IMG/VR virus record: IMGVR_UViG_2740892015_000011
Coordinates: 1-44,382 of that record
Source: a virus
Lineage: Duplodnaviria; Heunggongvirae; Uroviricota; Caudoviricetes
Reading direction: 5' to 3' (one strand)
DNA length: 44,382 nucleotides
Made by a program: the position numbers and the translations under genes. Shown here piece by piece: positions 1 to 44,077 of this stretch. The notes below the pieces were generated by a model. It saw only the letters and a program-made list of their open reading frames with translations. It ran no database searches and was not told the DNA's origin. Numbering within the stretch: position 1 is the stretch's first letter; each line of letters opens with the position of its first letter.

Positions 1-13
1 GGTTTGGGAGAAG
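1..13. repeat. Left recombination (crossover) site, half-site at window edge: GGTTTGGGAGAAG
   Basis: Exact 13-nt identity to the reverse complement of 1803..1815; the window appears to begin at the centre of the site. Confidence 0.5.
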
Positions 14-465
14 GTTCGGCATTACCCGTTGGTGTGCCTGTTCCGTGGCCTTTAGCCACTCCACCAACAGGATGGCTGAAATGTAACGGCGCTCCATTTG
101 CAGCTGAAAATTATCCGAAGCTGGCACTGGTTTACCCCGGTCTTGTGCTGCCAGATCTGCGGGGTGAGTTTATTCGTGGCTGGGATGATGGGCGTGGAGT
201 GGACAGTGGGCGAGCGTTATTGAGTGCTCAGAGCGATACGCTGCAAAATATTACAGGTAGCTTTTTTGATATGACCACGGGGACAAATAATAATACTTTC
301 GGCGCATTTACCTCTTCAATAGTGCAACCAAATCTCACACCAATTGCGATAGGTGGTACATATAAACAGGCGAATTATTATTTTGATGCATCACTTGTTG
401 CCAGAACATCAACGGAAACACGTGCGCGAAATATTGCATTTAACTTTATCGTGAGGGCTGCATAA
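4..465 (+). CDS. Alternate (currently unexpressed) tail-fibre C-terminal variable domain; 5' partial, continues from the crossover site
   Basis: Tail-collar-like motif PVPWPLATPPTGWLKCNG; reading frame runs through the crossover half-site at 1..13, so inversion would fuse it to the constant N-terminus of 1482..2099. Start in the ORF track is a TTG. Confidence 0.6.
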   Translation: MGEGSALPVGVPVPWPLATPPTGWLKCNGAPFAAENYPKLALVYPGLVLPDLRGEFIRGWDDGRGVDSGRALLSAQSDTLQNITGSFFDMTTGTNNNTFGAFTSSIVQPNLTPIAIGGTYKQANYYFDASLVARTSTETRARNIAFNFIVRAA

Positions 466-1067
466 TGGATAACGCTGTATTAAATAGCGAGCTTATTGCC
501 ACGAAGGCGGGGGATATTACCGTCTATAGCTATGATGGTGAAACTCGGGAATATATTTCCACTTCAAATGAATATCTTGCCGTTGGTGTTGGTATCCCGG
601 CATATTCCTGTCTGGATGAACCTGGTATACATAAGGCTGGTTATGCAATCTGCCGTTCGGCAGATTTAAACTCATGGGAATATGTGCCAGACCATCGCGG
701 TGAAATCGTCTATAACACCGAAACGGGAGACGCCAAAGAAATCACAGCTCTGGGTGATTACCCCGAAAATACAACCACTATCGCCCCGTTAACGCCATAC
801 GATAAATGGGATGGTGAGAAATGGGTGACGGATACTGAGGCACAGCATAGTGCCGCAGTAGACGCAGCAGAAGCACAGCGCCAGTCACTGATTGATGCAG
901 CAATGGCTTCCATTAGTCTGATTCAACTGAAATTACAGGCCGGGCGGAAACTGACGCAGGCAGAAACAACCCGGCTTAACGCTGTGCTGGATTACATTGA
1001 CGCGGTGACGGCAACAGATACCAGCACCGCGCCGGATGTCATCTGGCCTGAACTGCCGGAGGAGTAG
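465..1067 (+). CDS. Tail fibre assembly protein (partner of the alternate fibre domain)
   Basis: 200 aa, directly follows a fibre C-terminus; C-terminal ...DAVTATDTSTAPDVIWPELP resembles the C-terminus of the convergent assembly gene (...ELVDTSSAPDIEWPTPP). Same size and arrangement as e14 TfaE. Confidence 0.7.
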   Translation: MDNAVLNSELIATKAGDITVYSYDGETREYISTSNEYLAVGVGIPAYSCLDEPGIHKAGYAICRSADLNSWEYVPDHRGEIVYNTETGDAKEITALGDYPENTTTIAPLTPYDKWDGEKWVTDTEAQHSAAVDAAEAQRQSLIDAAMASISLIQLKLQAGRKLTQAETTRLNAVLDYIDAVTATDTSTAPDVIWPELPEE

Positions 1068-1479
1068 GCCATTCAATATCTGGTGCACTGGAAGTATCGA
1101 CCAGCTCCAGTGCGTCCAGATAATCCAGCCACAAATTATATTGCGCCAGTTCCTCACCTTTCAGACGACCAATAGCCGCTTTACCAGCCCATTGTCTACT
1201 GTTCATATAATCGTTGGCCTGATTAATCAATTGCTGCTTTTTAGTTTCGGCTGATGCAATTTGTTCTTCACGTGTTGGCGGTGGAACATCTGCCCATGCT
1301 GGCATTCCATCGTCTCCGGTAATTCTGTACTTACCGTCAGGCGGCGTATCATGGAAATATTCCCTGAAAATAGCTTCGTCTATATCCACGCCTTTACCTT
1401 CGGGCCATTGGCCTTTTGCAGCGTAAACAGACTGGAGGGCATAAGGGTACGCCAGATTATCAACATACAAATATTTCAT
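1039..1479 (-). CDS. Tail fibre assembly protein (expressed orientation)
   Basis: 146 aa, immediately downstream of the fibre gene 1482..2099; shares a C-terminal motif with 465..1067; the two genes converge and overlap by 29 nt. Confidence 0.7.
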   Translation of the reverse strand: MKYLYVDNLAYPYALQSVYAAKGQWPEGKGVDIDEAIFREYFHDTPPDGKYRITGDDGMPAWADVPPPTREEQIASAETKKQQLINQANDYMNSRQWAGKAAIGRLKGEELAQYNLWLDYLDALELVDTSSAPDIEWPTPPAVQAR

Positions 1480-1481
1480 AA

Positions 1482-2099
1482 TTAACGCCCTTTCGCGTAG
1501 AAGGCTCCACCTTCAAAGCCATAGTTACAATGAGCAACGAAACCTGTTTTCGTCCAGTTAGTTGCGCCCCACATATTCCCACCACCAAAACCGCCGTCAT
1601 ATACAATCACTACGTCTGGCTCCTGCGTAAAAGGAATGGTGAAAGTCACATTTGTAGATACCGCCGCGGCGTTATTCGGGAAATTAATTCTTCCCCACTG
1701 TTCAATTGAACCATCAGGCAATTTTTGCCAGCCAGATCCTGATGAATAAGCTGACATATCAGGTATCTGATTTTCCCCTGTTCCCACATTCCGTTTTGCC
1801 GCTTCTCCCAAACCAAGGTTTGTGAGAGCCGTAGAAATCGCCGCTGCTCCATCTGATTTGATATCGGCAAATGGGTTTGCACGGCTCAGTGTGAGTTTTT
1901 GAATGGCTTTTAAAACCTGAGTCATATCGTTAATGTCGAGCGCCAATCCTGCTGACTCTACGATATGCGCTAACTCTTCCTGCATGGCGTTAAACGCTGC
2001 TGCCCGCAGCCTCGTTGCGGCAATACCACCAGCAACACTTCCATCAGTATATTTGCCATCCTGCGTTGCAGTGGCTTCGACTTGCCCGATTCGGAGCAT
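1482..2099 (-). CDS. Short side tail fibre protein (constant N-terminus plus invertible C-terminal receptor-binding part)
   Basis: 205 aa, Gly/Ala-rich; contains the crossover site at about codon 95; position after the baseplate genes matches e14 StfP. Confidence 0.6.
   Translation of the reverse strand: MLRIGQVEATATQDGKYTDGSVAGGIAATRLRAAAFNAMQEELAHIVESAGLALDINDMTQVLKAIQKLTLSRANPFADIKSDGAAAISTALTNLGLGEAAKRNVGTGENQIPDMSAYSSGSGWQKLPDGSIEQWGRINFPNNAAAVSTNVTFTIPFTQEPDVVIVYDGGFGGGNMWGATNWTKTGFVAHCNYGFEGGAFYAKGR
1804..1829. repeat. Right recombination (crossover) site TTCTCCCAAACCAAGGTTTGTGAGAG
   Basis: 26-bp imperfect palindrome with an AAACC..GGTTT core resembling hix/gix/cix sites; lies inside the tail-fibre gene 1482..2099, about 95 codons from its start, where it encodes LTNLGLGE. 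Confidence 0.6.
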
Positions 2100-2150
2100 A
2101 GTTAATCCTCACTTAGTGTTAAGCGATAAAATCAGAGGGGGAAATATCAG

Positions 2151-2744
2151 TTATGAATAATTGAAAATGATGTTCAGATGGGATGGGGCAATTTTGTTGA
2201 TTGAACACTCCAGTTGTTTATTGCCCCACGATGCGAGCTGATCTCCGCAGTAGGACGCGCCAGCAAGCGAATACTTGATCGTTGTTTGTGGCGCATTTAT
2301 CCGCCAGGTAAATGGCCACTCGTCACCGTTAAGCGCATCACCGCATACTGACATGCCACTCATAGCGGGCCTGAACTGTGTGATAGTGATGGTATAACCA
2401 AGAGCTGCAGCCACCCGGATGTAATAATCGCGGTTCAGGCCGCCGGTGCTGATTAACTTTGCCACCACGGCGCGCTGGCGATCGCTGACGCCACCGGATT
2501 CACCAATCGCACAATCATCTGGTAACCCCAGAGAGCTTTCCCATTCTGACAACATTACCGTCGCTGTAGGGGGAAAAGCACCAGTAATCAGGCTTTGCGC
2601 ATCGTTGTCAGAACGCTGAAACGCGCTGCCCAGTGCCCGTAATACCGCAGCCTGTACCGTTCTTTGCGACCGGGGCCACGCCCTGCCCGTCGGTAGCAGC
2701 GCACCAAGCGCACCGGCATAATCATTTTTTGAAAAGAGGCTCAT
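2151..2744 (-). CDS. Phage tail protein, Mu gp48 / P2 gpI-like (YmfQ-like)
   Basis: 197 aa, immediately downstream of the J-like baseplate gene and upstream of the fibre; family assigned from gene order and size. Confidence 0.5.
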   Translation of the reverse strand: MSLFSKNDYAGALGALLPTGRAWPRSQRTVQAAVLRALGSAFQRSDNDAQSLITGAFPPTATVMLSEWESSLGLPDDCAIGESGGVSDRQRAVVAKLISTGGLNRDYYIRVAAALGYTITITQFRPAMSGMSVCGDALNGDEWPFTWRINAPQTTIKYSLAGASYCGDQLASWGNKQLECSINKIAPSHLNIIFNYS

Positions 2745-3883
2745 ACAAAATTCACCCCGCCAAGCACCGGAATTTCGCCAACAGCAAAGGTGATATTGGC
2801 CGTCGGAGAGTTAAGAATATAGCCCGTCGTGCCGCTAACACCGCCGATACTCCCGTTAATATCAGAGAGGTAAACTTTCCCAGAACCATCAGGGTTAGCT
2901 TCATCAAAAAACAGCGCCGTCAGCGCGTCTTTTATCCCCTGAACTGTGGTGCTGTCGGCATTTTTGATCCCAGAGATTTCAATATTGATGACTTTCTTGA
3001 TCGGGGAACATACGAAAACAATGGCAGTGTCTGTCTGCTGCGGATAGATGTGGTCGGCGACAGCGAGCTGGTCTCCGGTGGCTTTAACAGCCCCCCAGTC
3101 CTCAAGTTGGGATATTCCGTCGGTACCGACCGGAAACCCACCATTGTCATTCCGATCACACATGATATACACGCCAACGGTCCCGGCCCCGTTCAGACGC
3201 CGCTTTACCCACGCGCGGGTGACGCCCGAAACCTCAAGCGCCCATTTTTTATAATCGGCGTCGCTTCCACCCTGAGGCGGATTCTGCCATGCCAGCAAGC
3301 CACGACTGCGAAAATCCTCTTCCGTTTCAATATCGGCTCCGCCGGTCGCAGCGGACAGTAACGTTACCTGTGGATCCACGCCAGCAATATTCGCGTCCAG
3401 GGTCATTATGGTCCCGGCATCAGCGTTACCGCGCGCGCCTCCACCCGTTACATCACTGGTAATATCCGGCAGTATGGCCGTCACCGCGACGATACCAAAT
3501 CCATCTGCCTGAATTTTAAGATCTGCATCCGTCCGGTACTGGTATCCGTCCCCGCGGTTAATGATCGAGCCAACAGGGATAATACAGTCAACACTGCCAC
3601 TAGCCTGTACCGCAGGCGACTTCGCCGCTGCAGCTGGTTTTCTGAATACCTGCTTAAGGGCCATCCACCCGGCGAGATACTCATCGGTAGAGGTAAACGG
3701 GTTTGTCTGCAGGGCAATATAGTCAAGGTAGGCGTAATGCAGATGCCCCATCCCCGCATCCATGTCAGCCAGTACCTTCAGGTTCGCGAAGCGCAGGAGC
3801 GCACCAACATCCTCAAGCTCCGCCTGCATAAATTTCCGGTTTCCGTCGCGGAGTTCGCTCAGCGTCGGTCGTTTAAACGGCAT
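2741..3883 (-). CDS. Baseplate J-like protein (Mu gp47-like)
   Basis: ORF track gives 2741..4021; start moved to the internal Met (MPFKRPTLSELRDG...) at 3883, which abuts the stop of the upstream gene at 3885. Confidence 0.65.
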   Translation of the reverse strand: MPFKRPTLSELRDGNRKFMQAELEDVGALLRFANLKVLADMDAGMGHLHYAYLDYIALQTNPFTSTDEYLAGWMALKQVFRKPAAAAKSPAVQASGSVDCIIPVGSIINRGDGYQYRTDADLKIQADGFGIVAVTAILPDITSDVTGGGARGNADAGTIMTLDANIAGVDPQVTLLSAATGGADIETEEDFRSRGLLAWQNPPQGGSDADYKKWALEVSGVTRAWVKRRLNGAGTVGVYIMCDRNDNGGFPVGTDGISQLEDWGAVKATGDQLAVADHIYPQQTDTAIVFVCSPIKKVINIEISGIKNADSTTVQGIKDALTALFFDEANPDGSGKVYLSDINGSIGGVSGTTGYILNSPTANITFAVGEIPVLGGVNFV

Positions 3884-25821: not shown

Positions 25822-26576
25822 CAGTAAATCCCTCTTTTTTCATCGCTTTGGAACCAGGATGTAAAAGGGCTGTTCCGATAACTATCATCTGAGAGCAAAA
25901 CCAACAGTTCCATGTTCATTTCAGCTAAAACCTGCGGATCAGCAGTTTGGGCTCTAACGATGAATGCATTGTCATCATCTCCACCAAGATAATAGCTAAC
26001 ACTTGAACAGTTAATACCGCGCTTGTTCGCAATCTCTTCAGCTTGATCGCAAAGGGCTTCTAGTTCTCGAGAAGAAAGACGGGTAGCGTTTTTGAAATCA
26101 ACAATCTGTTCAGCCATATAATTTCCCTGATTGATTATATCCTCTCGCTCTTGGCCATCATAAAGAGCAGCCATTTTGAGGGAGAACTTTTTAACCAACT
26201 TGTCGTTGCCGATACAAAATGCAGCGTTTCTTGCTACAAGCCTCAGTTCATGTGAAGGGAAAAGCTCAACTATTCTAAACAACTCAACGCGATGCTCATA
26301 GTTATGAGCCGAACGAGAAAGATACGCCAAGTAGTTTTGTGCGATCGTTGGACTCCCAGAGCTCATCGCGTCTTTGAATAAACGTACTGCATCAGAGTGA
26401 CGCCCGAGAGTTCCATTAAGCCATGCATACGCATGTGCGCGCTCACTTATTGGAAGTTTAGCAATGTCGTGCTCAATTTCCGCAATAGTGTCTGTATCCG
26501 GGACTTCTCCCTTCTGGAAGTAATCGAGGATTGTTGCAAGCAGTTCTTGTTCTTTTGACTCAGGCTGTCCTGACAT
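25821..26576 (-). CDS. Unknown protein A of AT-rich cargo cassette (about 251 aa)
   Basis: ORF track start at 26597 is a TTG; first ATG (MSGQPESKEQ...) at 26576; no recognisable catalytic motif; translationally coupled to gene B. Confidence 0.5.
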   Translation of the reverse strand: MSGQPESKEQELLATILDYFQKGEVPDTDTIAEIEHDIAKLPISERAHAYAWLNGTLGRHSDAVRLFKDAMSSGSPTIAQNYLAYLSRSAHNYEHRVELFRIVELFPSHELRLVARNAAFCIGNDKLVKKFSLKMAALYDGQEREDIINQGNYMAEQIVDFKNATRLSSRELEALCDQAEEIANKRGINCSSVSYYLGGDDDNAFIVRAQTADPQVLAEMNMELLVLLSDDSYRNSPFTSWFQSDEKRGIY

Positions 26577-34945: not shown

Positions 34946-35572
34946 ATGGAAACGGTTGGTCAGCGCATTAAAGCCCTACGCAGGGTTACAAAAACCTCTC
35001 AAAAAGAACTGGGTAAGTTCTGCGGAGTGAGTGACGTAGCAGTGGGTTATTGGGAAAAGGATGTGAATATCCCAAACGGAGAATCGCTGGTTAAGCTGGC
35101 TAAATTCTTCAATACATCAATAGATTACATTCTTTACGGCACTGAATTTGAAGGGACCCTCATAACTAAAATGAGGCGTGTGCCCGTGATTTCTTGGGTT
35201 CAAGCTGGGCAGTTTACGGAATGTAAGGCCGCTGATTTATTCAGTGATGTCGATAAATGGGTTGAAACCTCACTACGCATTGGGGATAGCTCGTTCGCTT
35301 TAGAGGTCAAAGGGGATTCAATGACCAATCCAAATGGCCTCCCAACAATTCCTGAAGGGGCAACCGTTATTGTCGATCCAGATGCCGAACCCCTTCATGG
35401 CAAGATTGTTGTTGCGCGTATTGATGGCACTAACGAAGCGACTGTTAAAAAACTGGTCATTGATGGCCCACAAAAATTTTTAGTCCCACTAAATCCTCGC
35501 TACCCCAACATCCCGATCAATGGTAACTGCCTCATTATTGGAGTAGTTAAAGGCGTTCAGTACGAACTCTAA
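34946..35572 (+). CDS. cI: CI-type prophage repressor (HTH-XRE plus S24 LexA-like peptidase domain)
   Basis: N-terminal HTH (IKALRRVTKTSQKELGKFCGVSDVAVGYWE) and C-terminal S24 motifs (KGDSM ... VKK). Confidence 0.85.
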   Translation: METVGQRIKALRRVTKTSQKELGKFCGVSDVAVGYWEKDVNIPNGESLVKLAKFFNTSIDYILYGTEFEGTLITKMRRVPVISWVQAGQFTECKAADLFSDVDKWVETSLRIGDSSFALEVKGDSMTNPNGLPTIPEGATVIVDPDAEPLHGKIVVARIDGTNEATVKKLVIDGPQKFLVPLNPRYPNIPINGNCLIIGVVKGVQYEL

Positions 35573-36962: not shown

Positions 36963-37793
36963 ATGTCCCAGATTTTAGACGGCAATGCCCTGCAGCAGGT
37001 GAAAGACCTTGTTCTTTCCGGTTATCACCTTACTGCAGTTAAAGAAACAGCATGCCCTACTGCCCTGCTCCCTGATGGCGTAAACGTAGAGAGCCTTGAG
37101 CGTTTCGATCTGGAGCGTTTTCGTTTCCGCGGTGCCATGACCACAACCAGCATTCCTGACTTTGTTCGTTATGCAGCTGGCTATGCCAACGAAGCTGAAC
37201 CGGCGCGATGCTTTATCGATGCTGATAACATGACCGCACGCTCCGTGTTCAATATCGGTACTCTGGCTAACCCTGGCCATGCTGATAACGTCGCATCTAT
37301 CACCCTCAAAAAGACAGCGCCATTCCGAGCCCTACTTCAGGTAAATGGCGATCGACTGGGCCAGAAGGAAATTGCTGAATGGCTGGAGGACTGGGCCGAC
37401 TTCCTGAGCGCATTTGATGCCGACGGGAATGTGTTGTCCATCGCGCAGGCAGCTGGTGCCGTTCGTCGCGTCAATATCAAACAAGTCTCGGAAGCAGCTC
37501 ATGAAGACGAAGATTTTGGCGGCAGAAAGTCCCTGATGCAGAGCGTTGAAGCCAGCAGTAAAGACGTGATGCCTGTCGCCTTCGAGTTCAAATGCGTGCC
37601 GTATGAAGGCCTGGGCGAACGCCGCTTTAGCCTGCGTAACAGCCTGCTTAAAAGCGGGGAACCGGTGTTTGTACTCCGCATCGTTCAACTGGAAGCCCAG
37701 GAAGAAGCTATCGCCAACGAGTTCCGTGACCTGCTGATCGAGAAGTTCACCGACAAGCCGGTTGAAACCTTTATCGGTAACTTTAAAGCGTAA
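36963..37793 (+). CDS. YfdQ-like phage protein of unknown function
   Basis: 276 aa; size and neighbourhood (followed by an HD hydrolase) match the yfdQ-yfdR pair of CPS-53-type prophages. Confidence 0.4.
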   Translation: MSQILDGNALQQVKDLVLSGYHLTAVKETACPTALLPDGVNVESLERFDLERFRFRGAMTTTSIPDFVRYAAGYANEAEPARCFIDADNMTARSVFNIGTLANPGHADNVASITLKKTAPFRALLQVNGDRLGQKEIAEWLEDWADFLSAFDADGNVLSIAQAAGAVRRVNIKQVSEAAHEDEDFGGRKSLMQSVEASSKDVMPVAFEFKCVPYEGLGERRFSLRNSLLKSGEPVFVLRIVQLEAQEEAIANEFRDLLIEKFTDKPVETFIGNFKA

Positions 37794-40209: not shown

Positions 40210-40430
40210 TGCCCAGTAAACTCACACAGCGGCGTCTTCGCCGACTTAAAGCCGATGTCGCATGGTGGCGTGCAGAGGCTGAAGATTGCAGAACACGTCT
40301 GCTGGAGCTGGCGGGGGAAATCGATAGAGTACGAGCACAGATCGTCAGAGTACCAATGCCGGTGGTTGTCCCCTCGGCTTTAATCGCAGAATTAGCAATG
40401 GAGAAAGCAGTTGAACGACTTAATGATTGA
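40209..40430 (+). CDS. Hypothetical early protein
   Basis: 73 aa, coiled-coil-like, operon context. Confidence 0.3.
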   Translation: MPSKLTQRRLRRLKADVAWWRAEAEDCRTRLLELAGEIDRVRAQIVRVPMPVVVPSALIAELAMEKAVERLND

Positions 40431-40983
40431 CCTTGAATCAATGGGAAAAAAGCCAAACGCGCCGATCGTCTCAATTGGTGCCGTCTTTTTTAACCCTCAT
40501 ACAGGTGAACTTGGCCAAGAATTCTATACGGCCGTCTCGCTTGAAAGCGCAATGGATCAAGGGGCGGTACCGGATGGAGAAACGATTCTTTGGTGGCTAA
40601 AACAAAGCCCTGAAGCGCGCTCAGCTATTTGCGTTGATGATGCGATGCATATCACTGATGCACTGTCGGAACTTAGCCATTTCATTCACCGGCATGCATA
40701 TAATCTCAAATACATGAAGGTCTGGGGTAACGGGGCCACGTTTGACAATGTGATTCTGCGCGGAGCTTACGAACGCGCCGGACGCATTTGCCCGTGGGAA
40801 TTTTGGAACGATCACGATGTACGCACGATTGTTACCCTCGGTCGCAGTGTTGGTTTCGATCCGAAGCGTGACATGCCTTTCATTGGCGATGTTCACAACG
40901 CCCTGGCTGATGCGCGCCATCAGGCAAAATATGTGTCAGCAATTTGGCAGAAACTTATCCCTGCCACCAGCACCAACGAGTAA
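40411..40983 (+). CDS. DnaQ-like 3'-5' exonuclease
   Basis: Exo motif I-like DLESMG near the N-terminus and a distal HNALADA motif. Confidence 0.5.
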   Translation: MNDLMIDLESMGKKPNAPIVSIGAVFFNPHTGELGQEFYTAVSLESAMDQGAVPDGETILWWLKQSPEARSAICVDDAMHITDALSELSHFIHRHAYNLKYMKVWGNGATFDNVILRGAYERAGRICPWEFWNDHDVRTIVTLGRSVGFDPKRDMPFIGDVHNALADARHQAKYVSAIWQKLIPATSTNE

Positions 40984-41027
40984 ACCACTCAGCCCGGGTG
41001 CAGCCGGGCTTTATGGAGAAGGAAACC

Positions 41028-41237
41028 ATGGCAAAGCTAATGAAAGCGAGTCTCTGGAGTAAGCGCGAATTTACCAAAGACTCCATTCCTGACAACCGTA
41101 CAATTAAACGTTGGGTCGAAAACGGATTACTCATGGGAAGGATTGTAGATGGTTCAGTTTTTGTCTATGAAACCGAAAAATGGGGAGTTGACTCAATTGT
41201 TAATCAGGCGGTACGTCAGTTAATAATTGAGGGTTGA
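41028..41237 (+). CDS. xis: Excisionase-like protein
   Basis: Start at internal MAKLMKAS preceded by GGAGAAGG; ...DNRTIKRWVENG... resembles lambda Xis (...SLETVRRWVRE...); immediately upstream of int with a 4-nt overlap. Confidence 0.5.
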   Translation: MAKLMKASLWSKREFTKDSIPDNRTIKRWVENGLLMGRIVDGSVFVYETEKWGVDSIVNQAVRQLIIEG

Positions 41238-42421
41238 CCATGGCAGCAAGGCCACGAAAAAAAGAATACCGCCACCTTCCTGATTATCTTTTTTTTGATA
41301 AAGATCGTGGCGTGTATAAGTTCACGCTTATAACTGGGAAAAAGAAAACTCTCGGTTCGGATCGAGTAATGGCTATAGCCATCGCCCGAGAATATAACCT
41401 GAGGATGCGCCCTGAAAATACACCATCGATAGATTCATTAATTCGGGAATCGGGAGGGCTGAATGGTGAAGCCCAACCGTTTTCTGAACATGTTGATCGC
41501 ATTATGGAGAGAGCAATCAAAGATGAGCAGCCGTCTAAAAGCACACTTGACGATTGGAATAATGATGCCATCAGGGTTAAAGAATTTTTTAATAACATAC
41601 CCGCATGCGATATTGAGCTTGAGCACGTAAATGCCTACATACGAAATTACCATTCTGAATCGTCGGCCAATGTTCAGAACCGAAAAGTTAGCTTCCTGAA
41701 AAAGCTATTCTCTTATGCTGTTGATGAATCGCTAATGATGGATAACCCTGCAACACGGAAAAAAATGCGGCGTGTCGATAAAAAGGTCCGCCGGCGACTT
41801 ACTTTGGAACAGTTCCTGGCCATACATGCAGCTGCTGAACCTTGGCTGAAGACTGCAATGGACCTTGCCATACAAACTACGCAAGCGCGCCTGGAAGTTT
41901 CCCGGATCCGGTACTCGATCAAGGAACCTCAAGAAGGGGTTTGCGGCTGTGTATGGTTCGATCAGGAGGAGGCTGGCATATTCGGAACGCTTTACATTCA
42001 TCGGCAAAAAGTGCAGCACAAAGAGGCTTCACACGTCGCTATTCCGATCGGCAGGGCCCTGAAAGAGATCATCGACAACAGCAGAGACAATGTGGCCAGT
42101 CCTTATGTTGTTCACCGGCTTCTGGAAAAGAGAAGCAATCCGATAAGCAAGGAAGTTAACCACCCAACACAGGTGGCCCCTGACTATTTGAGCAGGGCAT
42201 TTTCAGAGCTGCGGGACCGGATAGGTGTAGCGGCAGAATTACCTATCAAAGAAAGGCCAACTTTCCACGAGATTAGAGCGCTGGCGGCTCATATTTTCGA
42301 AAGACAAGGTATCGATCCGCAGGCAAGGATGGCCCATAGTGATGCAAAATCGACAAAAATTTATACCCAGAATCATGTTGAATGGGTTGAAGTACCGCAT
42401 GCAGAAATAAAAATGGCATAG
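41234..42421 (+). CDS. int: Tyrosine integrase
   Basis: 395 aa; C-terminal catalytic region with ...HEIRALAAHIFERQGIDPQARMAHSDAKSTKIYTQNH...; next to xis and the att core. Confidence 0.85.
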   Translation: MTMAARPRKKEYRHLPDYLFFDKDRGVYKFTLITGKKKTLGSDRVMAIAIAREYNLRMRPENTPSIDSLIRESGGLNGEAQPFSEHVDRIMERAIKDEQPSKSTLDDWNNDAIRVKEFFNNIPACDIELEHVNAYIRNYHSESSANVQNRKVSFLKKLFSYAVDESLMMDNPATRKKMRRVDKKVRRRLTLEQFLAIHAAAEPWLKTAMDLAIQTTQARLEVSRIRYSIKEPQEGVCGCVWFDQEEAGIFGTLYIHRQKVQHKEASHVAIPIGRALKEIIDNSRDNVASPYVVHRLLEKRSNPISKEVNHPTQVAPDYLSRAFSELRDRIGVAAELPIKERPTFHEIRALAAHIFERQGIDPQARMAHSDAKSTKIYTQNHVEWVEVPHAEIKMA

Positions 42422-42540
42422 AAAAAGGCACCTGATGGTGCCTTGAATAAAGTCTTGAATAAGACACCCGAAGGTGCCTTAAGTGGTTCTCTTAGCAACG
42501 AACTAAGAACGCCCACGCCTCATACCCATAATCATGAGCA

Positions 42541-42645
42541 TCAAGGACTTTTGCGGATTTCCCACGTACCTTGCGGTAACGGCAGAAAACCCAACGGAAC
42601 CCTTTTGGTGCCGCTTTCGAAGCGATAGATTTCAAACTCATTCAT
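42541..42645 (-). CDS. Small ORF (34 aa) downstream of the metallopeptidase gene
   Basis: GGAGGTG RBS 4 nt before the ATG; MNEFEIYRFESGTKRVPLGFLPLPQGTWEIRKSP; too short for the ORF track. Confidence 0.25.
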   Translation of the reverse strand: MNEFEIYRFESGTKRVPLGFLPLPQGTWEIRKSP

Positions 42646-42799
42646 GTAACACCTCCTTACCAAGAGAGATTTTTCCCTTGAACATCTTCCCTGAAGGTGT
42701 TAGTTTCAGGCTGTCTATTGAAGCTGTTCACGGTGGTGACGCCTCTCGGATTCATCACCTTAAGACCCCTTGCATTGGTTGGCGCCAAGCAGGGGGTTT

Positions 42800-43321
42800 T
42801 TACATTTTGTCTAACTGATATCGTGCGGCCACTAATGATACTCCGCATGCCTCAGCTACATTTTCAGCACTCATACCTTTCAGAACATTGGCATGAATAG
42901 CTGGTACTAATAGCTCACCACTGAAACATTTGGCTTGCCACTCACTACTCTCAAAAGGGCGGATTTTTACCCCTGGAGCAGAACGCGCGAAAGCAATGTT
43001 CCTGTGCATGAGAAGATGACCCAGTTCATGTGCGGCAGTCATCCTGTCACGCCCTACCCCATTCAAAGCACCCTCGTAAATGTCTTCACGAAGAATCAAT
43101 AAATGTTCCTGTGGGTAGGTGAGACCGTGCGTCTCCCCCATTTCCTTCATCCCACCGATATGGAGTTCAAAATCTGGGATCAACTGAGGCAATGCGAACT
43201 CGATCACCTCCATAACAGGAAACATCAGACCTGTAATACCGAAGGTGCTCCGCAGAGATCTGACGATAGAACGTATTGATTCGCGGTTCTGCGGGGGTAC
43301 ACGATAATCTTGTCCGCTCAA
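42800..43321 (-). CDS. ImmA/IrrE-family zinc metallopeptidase
   Basis: HEXXH motif in TAAHELGHLLMH; paired with the upstream HTH gene. Confidence 0.7.
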   Translation of the reverse strand: MSGQDYRVPPQNRESIRSIVRSLRSTFGITGLMFPVMEVIEFALPQLIPDFELHIGGMKEMGETHGLTYPQEHLLILREDIYEGALNGVGRDRMTAAHELGHLLMHRNIAFARSAPGVKIRPFESSEWQAKCFSGELLVPAIHANVLKGMSAENVAEACGVSLVAARYQLDKM

Positions 43322-43329
43322 AATGCCTC

Positions 43330-43737
43330 CTACTGCTGTTTTCGATTCAAAATCTGTCGTAAATTCCGGAAGTCTTCTTCATTTAACTCATCAAAACTAC
43401 GAGCGAACGCAATTGCGACTTCACGAGCATGGTCGTTCTTACCTGACAAGCTGATCTCTACTGATTGCTGAGAGTCACGAGCTGCACTGATAAGCTTTTC
43501 TTTTTGTTTTTCATCCGCATTCAGATAGCCAATGATGCTATCAAGCACGGGTTTAGTGACCGCCCTTTTACCAGTTTCGATTGCTGAAAGATAAGACGAG
43601 GTCATACCCATAGCCTCAGCCATGCTTTTAAGCGTAAGCCCCAGGTCTATGCGCATTTTTCTTACTGTCTTACCAAACGGCGTTAACATAGTTGTATCTC
43701 CAGTGTGTCCAAGACCCCCATTACTCTTGGGTCTCAT
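43330..43737 (-). CDS. HTH-XRE transcriptional regulator (ImmR-like)
   Basis: HTH LKSMAEAMGMTSSYLSAIETGKR; probable start at internal MLTPFGK (about 43689). Confidence 0.7.
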   Translation of the reverse strand: MRPKSNGGLGHTGDTTMLTPFGKTVRKMRIDLGLTLKSMAEAMGMTSSYLSAIETGKRAVTKPVLDSIIGYLNADEKQKEKLISAARDSQQSVEISLSGKNDHAREVAIAFARSFDELNEEDFRNLRQILNRKQQ

Positions 43738-43763
43738 TTTAAGTTAACACGCTCCCGACAGAA

Positions 43764-43785
43764 AATCAACAGAATTTTGTTGATT
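43764..43785. promoter_or_regulatory. Palindromic operator candidate AATCAACA-(6)-TGTTGATT upstream of the HTH gene
   Basis: 8-bp inverted-repeat arms, 30-50 bp upstream of the regulator start. Confidence 0.4.
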
Positions 43786-43986
43786 TCTTTCATGTCGATT
43801 CGTTTACGAATCTTCAGTCTCGTGTTGATTGAGACGTAGGTCGTGTGAAGAAGTATGGGGAAAAACCAGCTGTAACCCATTGATGTGTATAGTGCGGATT
43901 TTGCAAAAAATGCACTGTTTGCATATACAGTCCAATGTGTCGCAACACCAGTATTTACAAGGGTTACAGCGGATTTATCGCAGTGA

Positions 43987-44032
43987 CATGGGGTGTCGGG
44001 GGTCGGAGGTTCAAATCCTCTCGTGCCGACCA
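43987..44032 (+). tRNA. 3' portion of a tRNA-Pro gene (anticodon loop to CCA), no 5' half: attachment-site core
   Basis: T-arm GGAGG-TTCAAAT-CCTCT, acceptor 3' strand CGTGCCG, discriminator A, CCA; upstream loop context T-GGG-G suggests anticodon GGG; no matching CGGCACG 5' acceptor strand upstream. Matches tRNA-Pro from memory only. Confidence 0.55.
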
Positions 44033-44043
44033 AAAATCCCAAG

Positions 44044-44077
44044 AAAACCAACCTATTGCGGTTGGTTTTTTTATATC
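44044..44077 (+). terminator. Rho-independent terminator after the tRNA-Pro 3' end
   Basis: AACCAACC-TATTGC-GGTTGGTT followed by TTTTTTT. Confidence 0.6.

Follow-up and report, generated by a model that had tools for sequence, protein, structure and literature searches.

Few gene pairs are as common in prophages and defence islands as those for an XRE-family repressor and an ImmA-type protease, and the genes that such pairs control are mostly obscure. Three-component Xre/COG2856/toxin systems, abundant in prophages and with RelE or PIN as the third gene, a toxin to be neutralised by the system, were predicted by Makarova, Wolf and Koonin (2009). In CapH/CapP (Lau et al. 2022; Calloji et al. 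2026), the protease CapP is built of a peptidase domain, a linker resembling a helix-turn-helix (HTH) and a GAF domain, binds single-stranded DNA (ssDNA) between peptidase and GAF, and cuts the repressor CapH at F82|R83, in the first helix of the C-terminal dimerisation domain; about a third of CapP proteins possess a cysteine-switch loop, and capH-capP lie upstream of, and divergent from, the immune operon under their regulation. IrrE of Deinococcus senses ssDNA in its peptidase-GAF groove and, after DNA damage, cleaves DdrO in the C-terminal dimerisation region. Here we describe a relative of these pairs in IMG/VR record IMGVR_UViG_2740892015_000011 (positions 1 to 44,382; the whole stretch of 44,382 nucleotides is called the window below), which is the right part of an Escherichia coli prophage inserted in proL. 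The pair is followed on the same strand by a folded leader RNA and a conserved 49-aa protein, ORF49; literature searches found no paper on the HTH-ImmA-ORF49 trio or on the ORF49 leader. An earlier note on this DNA had reported an HTH-metallopeptidase pair with a palindrome and a small open reading frame (ORF); its observation was confirmed in part, and its interpretation was partly supported.

ORF49 (42492-42641; minus strand, as are all features of the module unless stated) is a basic protein (net charge ~+8) for which a high content of beta-strands is predicted, and its AF2 model has four short strands at a pLDDT of 90. The protein matched phrog_33859 (E=1.5e-26; 27 homologous clusters), with P12, G14, R21 and R23 invariant, and a profile search of 1.84 billion representatives returned 90 members, all small; the domain stands at the C-terminus in every case, and fusions to other domains are absent. 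The protein matched no family of Pfam, NCBIfam or PADLOC and no toxin family. PGAP annotates the gene in some genomes and leaves it out in others with identical sequence. The earlier note had placed a 34-aa ORF with a strong ribosome-binding site (RBS) at this position. The RBS and the first ATG proved real and conserved, and the frame proved wrong, the gene being ORF49. The 34-codon frame (42541-42645) opens with an ATG (42645-42643) that lies 6 nt after the Shine-Dalgarno (SD) sequence and out of frame with ORF49, and searches of Pfam, PHROGs, NCBIfam and PADLOC yielded no homologue of it. Across the overlapping frames, two E. coli alleles of the module differ at 16 of 154 nt; these differences amount to 13 synonymous and 2 non-synonymous codon changes in the 49-aa frame, compared with 0 synonymous and 8 non-synonymous in the 34-aa frame, a pattern indicating that ORF49 is under purifying selection. 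The out-of-frame ORF of relatives is only 2-37 codons long. We therefore rejected the 34-aa ORF as a gene, since it lacks homologues, its frame is not conserved and its changes are exclusively non-synonymous.

The misleading ATG is itself a recurrent feature. Of the 81 leaders in the non-redundant set, 53 have an out-of-frame ATG as the first one behind the SD (4-6 nt away), and the true ATG or GTG of ORF49 lies 2-7 nt beyond it, in the patterns ATGnATG, ATGTG and ATGn4ATG; in the window the ORF49 start is 4 nt downstream of the ATG of the 34-aa frame. The SD-proximal ATG looks like a decoy or a start-selection device. The overlapping start pair (42639-42645 in the window) was also seen at the equivalent position in loci L005, L026, L140, L151, L162 and others.

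To place ORF49 in its gene neighbourhood, 160 related loci (viral contigs and genomes, mostly of Gamma-, Beta- and Alphaproteobacteria) were fetched by means of the ORF49 alignment, and synteny was established by iterative searches with hidden Markov models on the six-frame ORFs of the ORF49 loci. Genes for an HTH protein and ImmA lie directly 5' of ORF49 on the same strand in 115 of 171 loci, and the gene calls of independent assemblies agree. Searching from the protease instead, ORF49 was found downstream of ImmA relatives in 53 of 76 loci from viral contigs, among them every one of the 32 loci whose ImmA identity was at least 60%. At least 11 of the remaining ImmA loci carry a gene for 38-55 aa of the type MYIFRAWITxKDGTKVYAKDHGKKAFRFWV, which aligns to residues 18-48 of ORF49 (hhalign probability 90.8%, E=1.2e-6). 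These remote genes (for example at L219, L225, L228, L229 and L233, and further at L234, L237, L245, L249 and L254) belong to no Pfam or PHROG family and begin 55-190 nt after ImmA, some of them encoding lysine-rich tails. Since remote ImmA genes are followed by remote ORF49 homologues, the third gene appears to co-diverge with the pair, and the alignments hint that the third component is a superfamily wider than the profile detects.

Elsewhere ORF49 follows other genes. The commonest alternative neighbour directly upstream is a family of 170-195 aa (L115:3244-3849, L076:3272-3844, L087:3319-3849, L134, L138 and others) with no Pfam match and a C-terminus like PVPLREGLTVKISNLPADLTxxEAxxIAAIIKAYA; a family of ~250 aa (L118, L125, L143 and L147) and a class II RNR-like gene also occur there. 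ORF49 homologues further stand directly behind defence-type genes, namely a CAP12/PCTIR TIR protein, an AAA_21 (AbiEii-like) ATPase and a STAND NTPase (L014:4712-5842, L061:2454-3815 and L110:2617-3843). Such asymmetric dependence would be expected if ORF49 were the shared effector. A C-terminal motif common to HTH and the alternative upstream partners, as a possible ORF49-binding segment, was sought and rejected (hhalign probability <1%). Of 80 viral contigs, 42 have ORF49 within 3 kb of a contig end, consistent with cargo carried at the edges of prophages, and homologues are frequent in viral contigs, contrary to the earlier note's proposed refutation that they would be consistently chromosomal and outside prophages.

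Between ImmA and ORF49 lies a feature that the earlier note overlooked: a structured leader RNA of ~160 nt (42642-42799), identified by a covariance model, by covariation and by minimum free energy (MFE). It begins with hairpin P1 directly after ImmA (42765-42797), followed by P2 (42735-42759), P3 (42726-42733 paired with 42676-42683) and P4 (42690-42710, with a near-invariant UA[AG]CAC loop), and it closes with an A-rich linker, a pyrimidine tract, the SD AAGGAGGUG (42650-42658) and the two start codons. A pseudoknot joins the P2 loop (42743-42749) to 42660-42666, adjoining the SD: in the window the loop sequence CCGAGAG is complementary to CUCUUGG just 5' of the SD, and relatives show many double changes, for example to CCAAAAG/CUUUUGG, CCAAGGGG/CCCCUUUGG, UGGAGCC/GGCUCCA and CCGGGAGG/CCUCCCGG. 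The pairing was assessed independently of any alignment by comparing duplex energies of cognate and non-cognate loop-tract combinations over 5000 permutations; the 57 leaders of the window's type gave a mean of -13.1 kcal/mol for cognate against -10.3 kcal/mol for non-cognate pairs, a value reached by 0 of the 5000 permutations. The covariance model was seeded with seven close sequences, the pseudoknot being left out, and leaders were realigned with Infernal. It found 42 matches in 88 sources, all directly 5' of ORF49 homologues, and a single match in the window (143.8 bits). In the resulting alignment 86.8% of cells were paired (61.0% in shuffles), and the covariation score of 0.524 exceeded both the shuffled value (0.165; 0 of 500 shuffles reached 0.524) and that of slid partners (0.07-0.105). 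The pseudoknot helix, which lay outside the model fit, was 81% paired, with compensatory changes on both sides at seven of eight pairs, and the leader's MFE z-score was -3.1. Given its compensatory changes and its position at the RBS, the leader qualifies as a cis-regulatory structured leader in the broad sense.

Rfam 15 gave no match at gathering score to the leader in the window and nine related loci, where the region drew only chance-level matches with E above 5. RNAalifold on a plain MAFFT alignment of 46 leaders yielded no structure, that alignment being inadequate for the purpose. The pyrimidine tract is able to pair with the SD as well, as seen in MFE folds, which suggests that tract, P2 loop and SD may form a three-part switch. 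The P2 loop was also considered as a GGA site for CsrA/RsmA and rejected, several members, including the window, having no GGA in the loop. A second leader type, likewise absent from Rfam, occurs where the upstream gene is not ImmA (at L014, L115, L132, L134, L138, L143, L153, L159, L164, L168 and L172); it lies ~230 nt 5' of ORF49 homologues and has the form GGAAU-[GGGAAGC]-CCACU...AGUGGAUUCC, in which the internal loop covaries with a hairpin loop (GCUUCCC) near the SD through pairs such as GGAGAGC/GCUCUCC, GGGAGGC/GCCUCCC and GGAUGG/CCAUCC. The duplex comparison for 23 leaders of this type gave means of -16.5 kcal/mol (cognate) and -14.4 kcal/mol (non-cognate), again with 0 of 5000 permutations as low.

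The top of P1 (42765-42797) carries a conserved motif that occurs in both orientations, as GAGCGCCAACUC in L140, L050 and L135 against GAGUUGGCGCUC in L162, L056 and L160; in the window it is the palindrome UUGGCGCCAA. The inversion suggests that either selection acts on the DNA itself or template switching has turned the loop around.

All ORF49 homologues start 80-190 nt after the upstream stop codon, in a spacer that opens with a hairpin, a canonical terminator in many relatives, and continues with the conserved fold; with ORF49 and its leader placed thus behind many different genes, and with the covariance model also matching leaders behind non-ImmA genes, one could propose two independent neighbours, an Xre/COG2856 pair that is autoregulated or a two-gene, toxin-antitoxin-like module, and a mini-cassette of terminator hairpin, leader and ORF49 that tends to lodge behind terminators in the cargo regions of mobile elements. 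We consider this unlikely. The trio is kept across Gamma-, Beta- and Alphaproteobacteria, the closer ImmA relatives carry ORF49 without exception, the co-divergence described above ties remote third genes to remote proteases, and the interval between P1 and P2 is too small for a separate promoter.

The protease gene (42800-43321, TTG start) encodes an ImmA/IrrE-type M78 zinc metallopeptidase of 173 aa. The earlier note's HEXXH metallopeptidase is upheld by a match to Pfam PF06114 (Peptidase_M78) of 36.9 bits against a cutoff of 22 and by the zinc-site residues H98, E99, H102 and E127, invariant in 62 non-redundant relatives (median 176 aa, maximum 201 aa), which place the protein in M78/COG2856. 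Its AGGAGG RBS overlaps the stop codon of the HTH gene, and translational coupling of HTH and ImmA is therefore suggested. In size and domain content ImmA resembles, as judged from its sequence, the ImmA of ImmR/ImmA.

The pair is of the ImmR/ImmA, CapH/CapP and DdrO/IrrE kind, in agreement with the earlier note's likening of it to induction- or defence-linked pairs, and its best PADLOC matches are capP for ImmA (1.1e-10, covering profile positions 56-147 of 242 only) and capH for the HTH protein (4.2e-10, over nearly full length). The nearest solved structure to ImmA is likewise a CapP (7t5t, a 291-aa chain), although aligned residues 81-141 comprise only the active-site region. The thought that the module is an orphan CapH/CapP regulator, its defence operon lost or located elsewhere, draws on these matches, and yet ImmA has no GAF domain and no divergent operon accompanies the pair; no cysteine occurs at the CapP switch position between the HELGH and SEWQA motifs of ImmA, where the 7t5t alignment sets 'AFARS-A' opposite CapP 'SFQCSDA'. 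As, moreover, the conserved partner is the co-directional ORF49 and divergence from known defence operons was not seen in ~190 loci, we judge this origin very improbable.

The GAF domain is the ssDNA-sensing part of CapP and IrrE, and a protease without it might be served by a separate sensor. ORF49, small, very basic and plausibly nucleic-acid-binding, could act as sensor, cofactor or anti-repressor for the GAF-less ImmA, in which case the output would be cleavage of other repressors or of host proteins by ImmA, or an HTH regulon at some other place in the chromosome; close ImmA relatives always keep ORF49, and a tight limit on its synthesis would equally befit the trigger of a positive-feedback loop. 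About one-third of ORF49 loci, however, have no ImmA and place ORF49 behind unrelated genes, and the window contains no further operator beyond one weak intragenic match. We give this arrangement a small chance of being correct.

The HTH gene (43330-43689) encodes an XRE-family repressor (119 aa) whose HTH is N-terminal and whose C-terminal region is helical. The assignment made by the earlier note holds, the Cro/C1-type HTH being matched by Pfam HTH_31 (3.4e-10) and HTH_3 (5.2e-10), both above cutoffs; its start was moved to ATG 43689, which is the most likely one because it is preceded by a GGAG RBS and is the start used by PGAP/RefSeq. A longer ORF of 135 aa (ATG 43737) was rejected: it has no RBS, its ATG precedes the point where transcription is inferred to begin, and the PGAP annotation has the 119-aa version. 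The C-terminal helix of the family carries the conserved motif A-F95-A-R97-x-F.

Upstream of the HTH gene lies the perfect palindrome AATCAACA-N6-TGTTGATT (O1, 43764-43785, no strand assigned; extended to 43763-43786 it reads AAATCAACA...TGTTGATTT), exactly where the earlier note had put it. O1 overlaps the -35 box of the module's own promoter (43741-43769), which was read from the sequence and from geometry kept in relatives: -35 TTGATT (43769-43764) is the right arm of O1, and a 17-nt spacer with a TG extension leads to -10 TAACTT (43746-43741). The right arm TTGATT, 17-nt spacer and TAnnTT are kept in enterobacterial relatives, and equivalent palindromes with the half-site TCAAC or TTAAC, such as TAAATCAACAAAAATCAGTTGATTTA and ATAAATCAACCTCTAGAGGTTGATTTAT, stand 70-100 nt 5' of the HTH start in many divergent relatives. 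Allowing up to three mismatches, three operator matches were found in the window against 0.22 expected (0 of 100 shuffles reached three). One of the three is an imperfect second copy 45 bp from O1 (O2, 43809-43830, two mismatches, no strand assigned), whose status is weak because the second E. coli allele retains just its ATCAACA half and more distant relatives retain none of it; the third, at 25899-25920 (AACCAACAGTTCCATGTTCATT, two mismatches including a core G), lies inside an unannotated minus-strand ORF of 258 aa and was rejected as probably due to chance. Conservation and position support the prediction that the palindrome behaves as an operator, and from its placement over the -35 box we infer autorepression of the operon by HTH.

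A hairpin, AGACCC...GGGTCT, opens the HTH mRNA (43712-43734). Its stem covaries among relatives, which have AGACCT/AGGTCT and AGAGTC/GACTCT, and it could be an mRNA stabiliser or a further control point.

The module is distinct from the prophage's own switch, as the earlier note had held. The prophage repressor at 34946-35572 combines HTH_3 with Peptidase_S24 and is a LexA-like self-cleaving cI, with a CII-like gene opposite. Because the prophage has this repressor of its own, the HTH-ImmA module is, on gene content and arrangement, not its induction switch, and would instead be a cargo cassette at the att-proximal edge. An immunity and induction switch of the ImmR/ImmA type as in ICEBs1 and phi105, serving either this prophage or a decayed second element, would account for the proteins and gene order shared with immR-immA and for the location beside int and att, and the earlier note's reasoning leaned in this direction. 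We nevertheless think it quite improbable, for the S24 cI is complete, xis-int is read from the other side with int convergent to the module, and the cassette also occurs away from any cognate int. Nor does anything divergent precede attR: upstream of the module only the ~200-nt attP arm and the attR core are found, and across attP the sister prophage genes are oppositely oriented. Operator-like sites in the window are confined to the module's own promoter, apart from the weak intragenic match, and no control of excision, transfer or lytic genes of the element was indicated. The earlier note had left the target of the regulator as unknown, and this can now be narrowed: because the operator sites stand at the module's own promoter and ORF49 is the one conserved partner, the module most likely controls itself and the downstream small gene.

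Taken as a whole, the explanation that fits best, and that we hold with no more than middling confidence, is a self-contained, autorepressed cassette that is relieved by ImmA and has ORF49 as its potent output. Judging from anatomy and conservation, HTH would bind the palindrome over the -35 box of a single promoter and repress HTH-ImmA-(leader)-ORF49. By homology with ImmR/ImmA, CapH/CapP and DdrO/IrrE, a signal of stress, probably connected with damage to DNA or with phage infection, would lead ImmA to cleave the C-terminal helical domain of HTH, for which the A-F-A-R-x-F motif is a candidate site only, and the operon would be derepressed. Synthesis of ORF49 could then still be held down by three further layers whose sequence features are described above and whose function is proposed here: the hairpin right after ImmA; the leader, in which the pyrimidine tract would pair either with the SD-like hairpin loop, as the pseudoknot, or with the real SD; and the out-of-frame ATG at optimal SD distance, 4 nt before the true start. 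Such stacked restraint suggests that ORF49 would act at very low dose. We propose that it is an effector that arrests growth or is toxic, forming the third component of a module of the Xre/COG2856/toxin type, and that it may serve abortive defence or benefit the prophage when induced.

Several points weigh against this cassette model. ORF49 has no structural neighbour and no detectable relative of known function or fold, and its toxicity is something we purely infer. ImmA has no GAF domain through which ssDNA might be sensed. Some one-third of ORF49 loci have no HTH-ImmA, and from the ORF49 side the link is not obligate. The SD is invariant among leaders, so that covariation is silent on SD pairing; attenuation at P1 may be weak in the window because its P1 has no good U-tract; and a generic promoter scan called 0 sites, the operon promoter included, which was inferred from cross-species conservation instead.

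A more far-reaching proposal, which we put forward only tentatively, is that the trio constitutes an undescribed three-component, stress-triggered kill/arrest or abortive-defence system. Its effectors would then be basic proteins of 40-55 aa that make up a new superfamily and accompany XRE-ImmA pairs far outside Proteobacteria, and effector translation would be under a new class of pseudoknotted leader RNA, a genuine switch among anti-anti-SD, anti-SD, SD and two overlapping starts, responding to a cellular or phage signal.

The cassette is portable. The block of ~1.4 kb (42458-43863), comprising operators and promoter, HTH, ImmA, leader, ORF49 and the first hairpin, occupies two sites among the 13 of 5,426 complete E. 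coli genomes that carry it: at proL/yejO in five genomes (99.6% identity) and at another chromosomal site in eight (89.5% identity), inside a decayed lambdoid prophage beside a P4-like element. Two tandem hairpins (42425-42480, no strand assigned) close the operon, and 42425-42444 is a bidirectional terminator in common with int. A 24-nt direct repeat between the int stop and the ORF49 stop (42421-42480) builds both hairpins; only the int-proximal one has a U-tract, and the boundary of cassette homology at 42458 falls between them.

The earlier note's placement of the module between int and the att site was confirmed. The tyrosine integrase (41234-42421, plus strand, with Arm-binding and catalytic domains) is followed rightward by the three minus-strand genes, ~200 nt of presumed attP arm and the 50-nt attR core (43987-44036, plus strand), which is identical to the 3' end of the tRNA-Pro (proL) that is annotated at attL of the sister prophage of strain SZQ1 (NZ_CP173996.1, L003); beyond it lie the native terminator and then yejO. 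ARAGORN found no complete tRNA over the window and an Rfam scan gave no match, as the window holds part of the tRNA only. Comparison of 44037-44075 with attL of L003 shows that the phage brings its own tRNA 3' half and its own terminator, the tRNA half rebuilding an intact proL at attL and the native terminator being left at attR. The yejO gene beside attR is marked as a pseudogene (internal stop) in SZQ1.

The SZQ1 prophage, at the same proL site, has the int end and the cassette in common with the window and differs in its tail module, which is lambda-like (tape measure, J); comparison of window positions 1-3000 with NZ_CP173996.1 indicates that the prophage is mosaic. Tail genes in the window are of the baseplate J/gp47 type, with a tail-fibre assembly region at the left edge, and the window stops short of attL. 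Genes for an Rv2179c-like 3'-5' exoribonuclease and a DUF2303 (YfdQ-family) protein lie in the early region (40411-40983 and 36963-37793), and a probable excisionase (40944-41237) lies just 5' of int.

For one large XRE-ImmA subfamily, ORF49 offers a concrete and testable output. The HTH-ImmA pair here has a fixed, tiny partner often missed by annotation pipelines, and a leader that lies outside Rfam. The trio recurs across many bacteria and looks, from its conserved anatomy, like a tightly locked, stress-triggered switch. If ORF49 were a potent effector, the system would be a compact one controlled at four levels, by the repressor, the attenuator hairpin, the pseudoknot switch and the decoy start; a protease-cleaved repressor tied to a small protein would, if true, be relevant to conflicts between prophage and host, to toxin-antitoxin biology and to the search for RNA regulators. 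The locus also advises caution in small-ORF calling, the best-placed ATG opening a non-conserved reading frame.

Of the described systems, ImmR/ImmA (Bacillus subtilis ICEBs1 and phage phi105) shares with the present module an XRE repressor followed in one operon by a single-domain M78 protease of ~170 aa, autoregulation of the repressor (predicted for the module) and a place in mobile elements beside int; here too the repressor gene is immediately upstream and co-oriented, ImmA has 173 aa against a family median of 176 aa, and by homology the protease would be expected to cleave the repressor. It differs in that the module here has no divergent excision or transfer operon, sits in an element with its own LexA-like cI, and has ORF49 and its folded leader after the protease in place of int. 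CapH/CapP provides the best profile matches and the closest structure, as well as an HTH with a C-terminal helical domain, whereas the 173-aa ImmA has neither the GAF domain nor the cysteine switch of the three-domain CapP, and its conserved partner is downstream on the same strand and not a divergent operon. IrrE/DdrO likewise pairs an M78 protease with an XRE repressor, but IrrE has a GAF domain and a chromosomal regulon, and there is no small-gene partner. SOS-induced small toxins such as tisB combine a promoter derepressed under stress with a potent protein of very small size, the translation of which a structured 5' untranslated region restrains, and the proposed stress-derepressed small protein behind a translation-limiting leader would be analogous; ORF49, however, is hydrophilic and basic and not a membrane peptide, no antisense RNA was seen, and the repressor proposed is a local one cleaved by a protease instead of LexA. 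The predicted Xre/COG2856/toxin class has the same composition in one operon of a mobile element, with Xre, a COG2856 protease and a third gene in the position of the toxin, and differs in the nature of that third gene, which here belongs to an undescribed 49-aa family and is preceded by a pseudoknotted leader and a decoy start.

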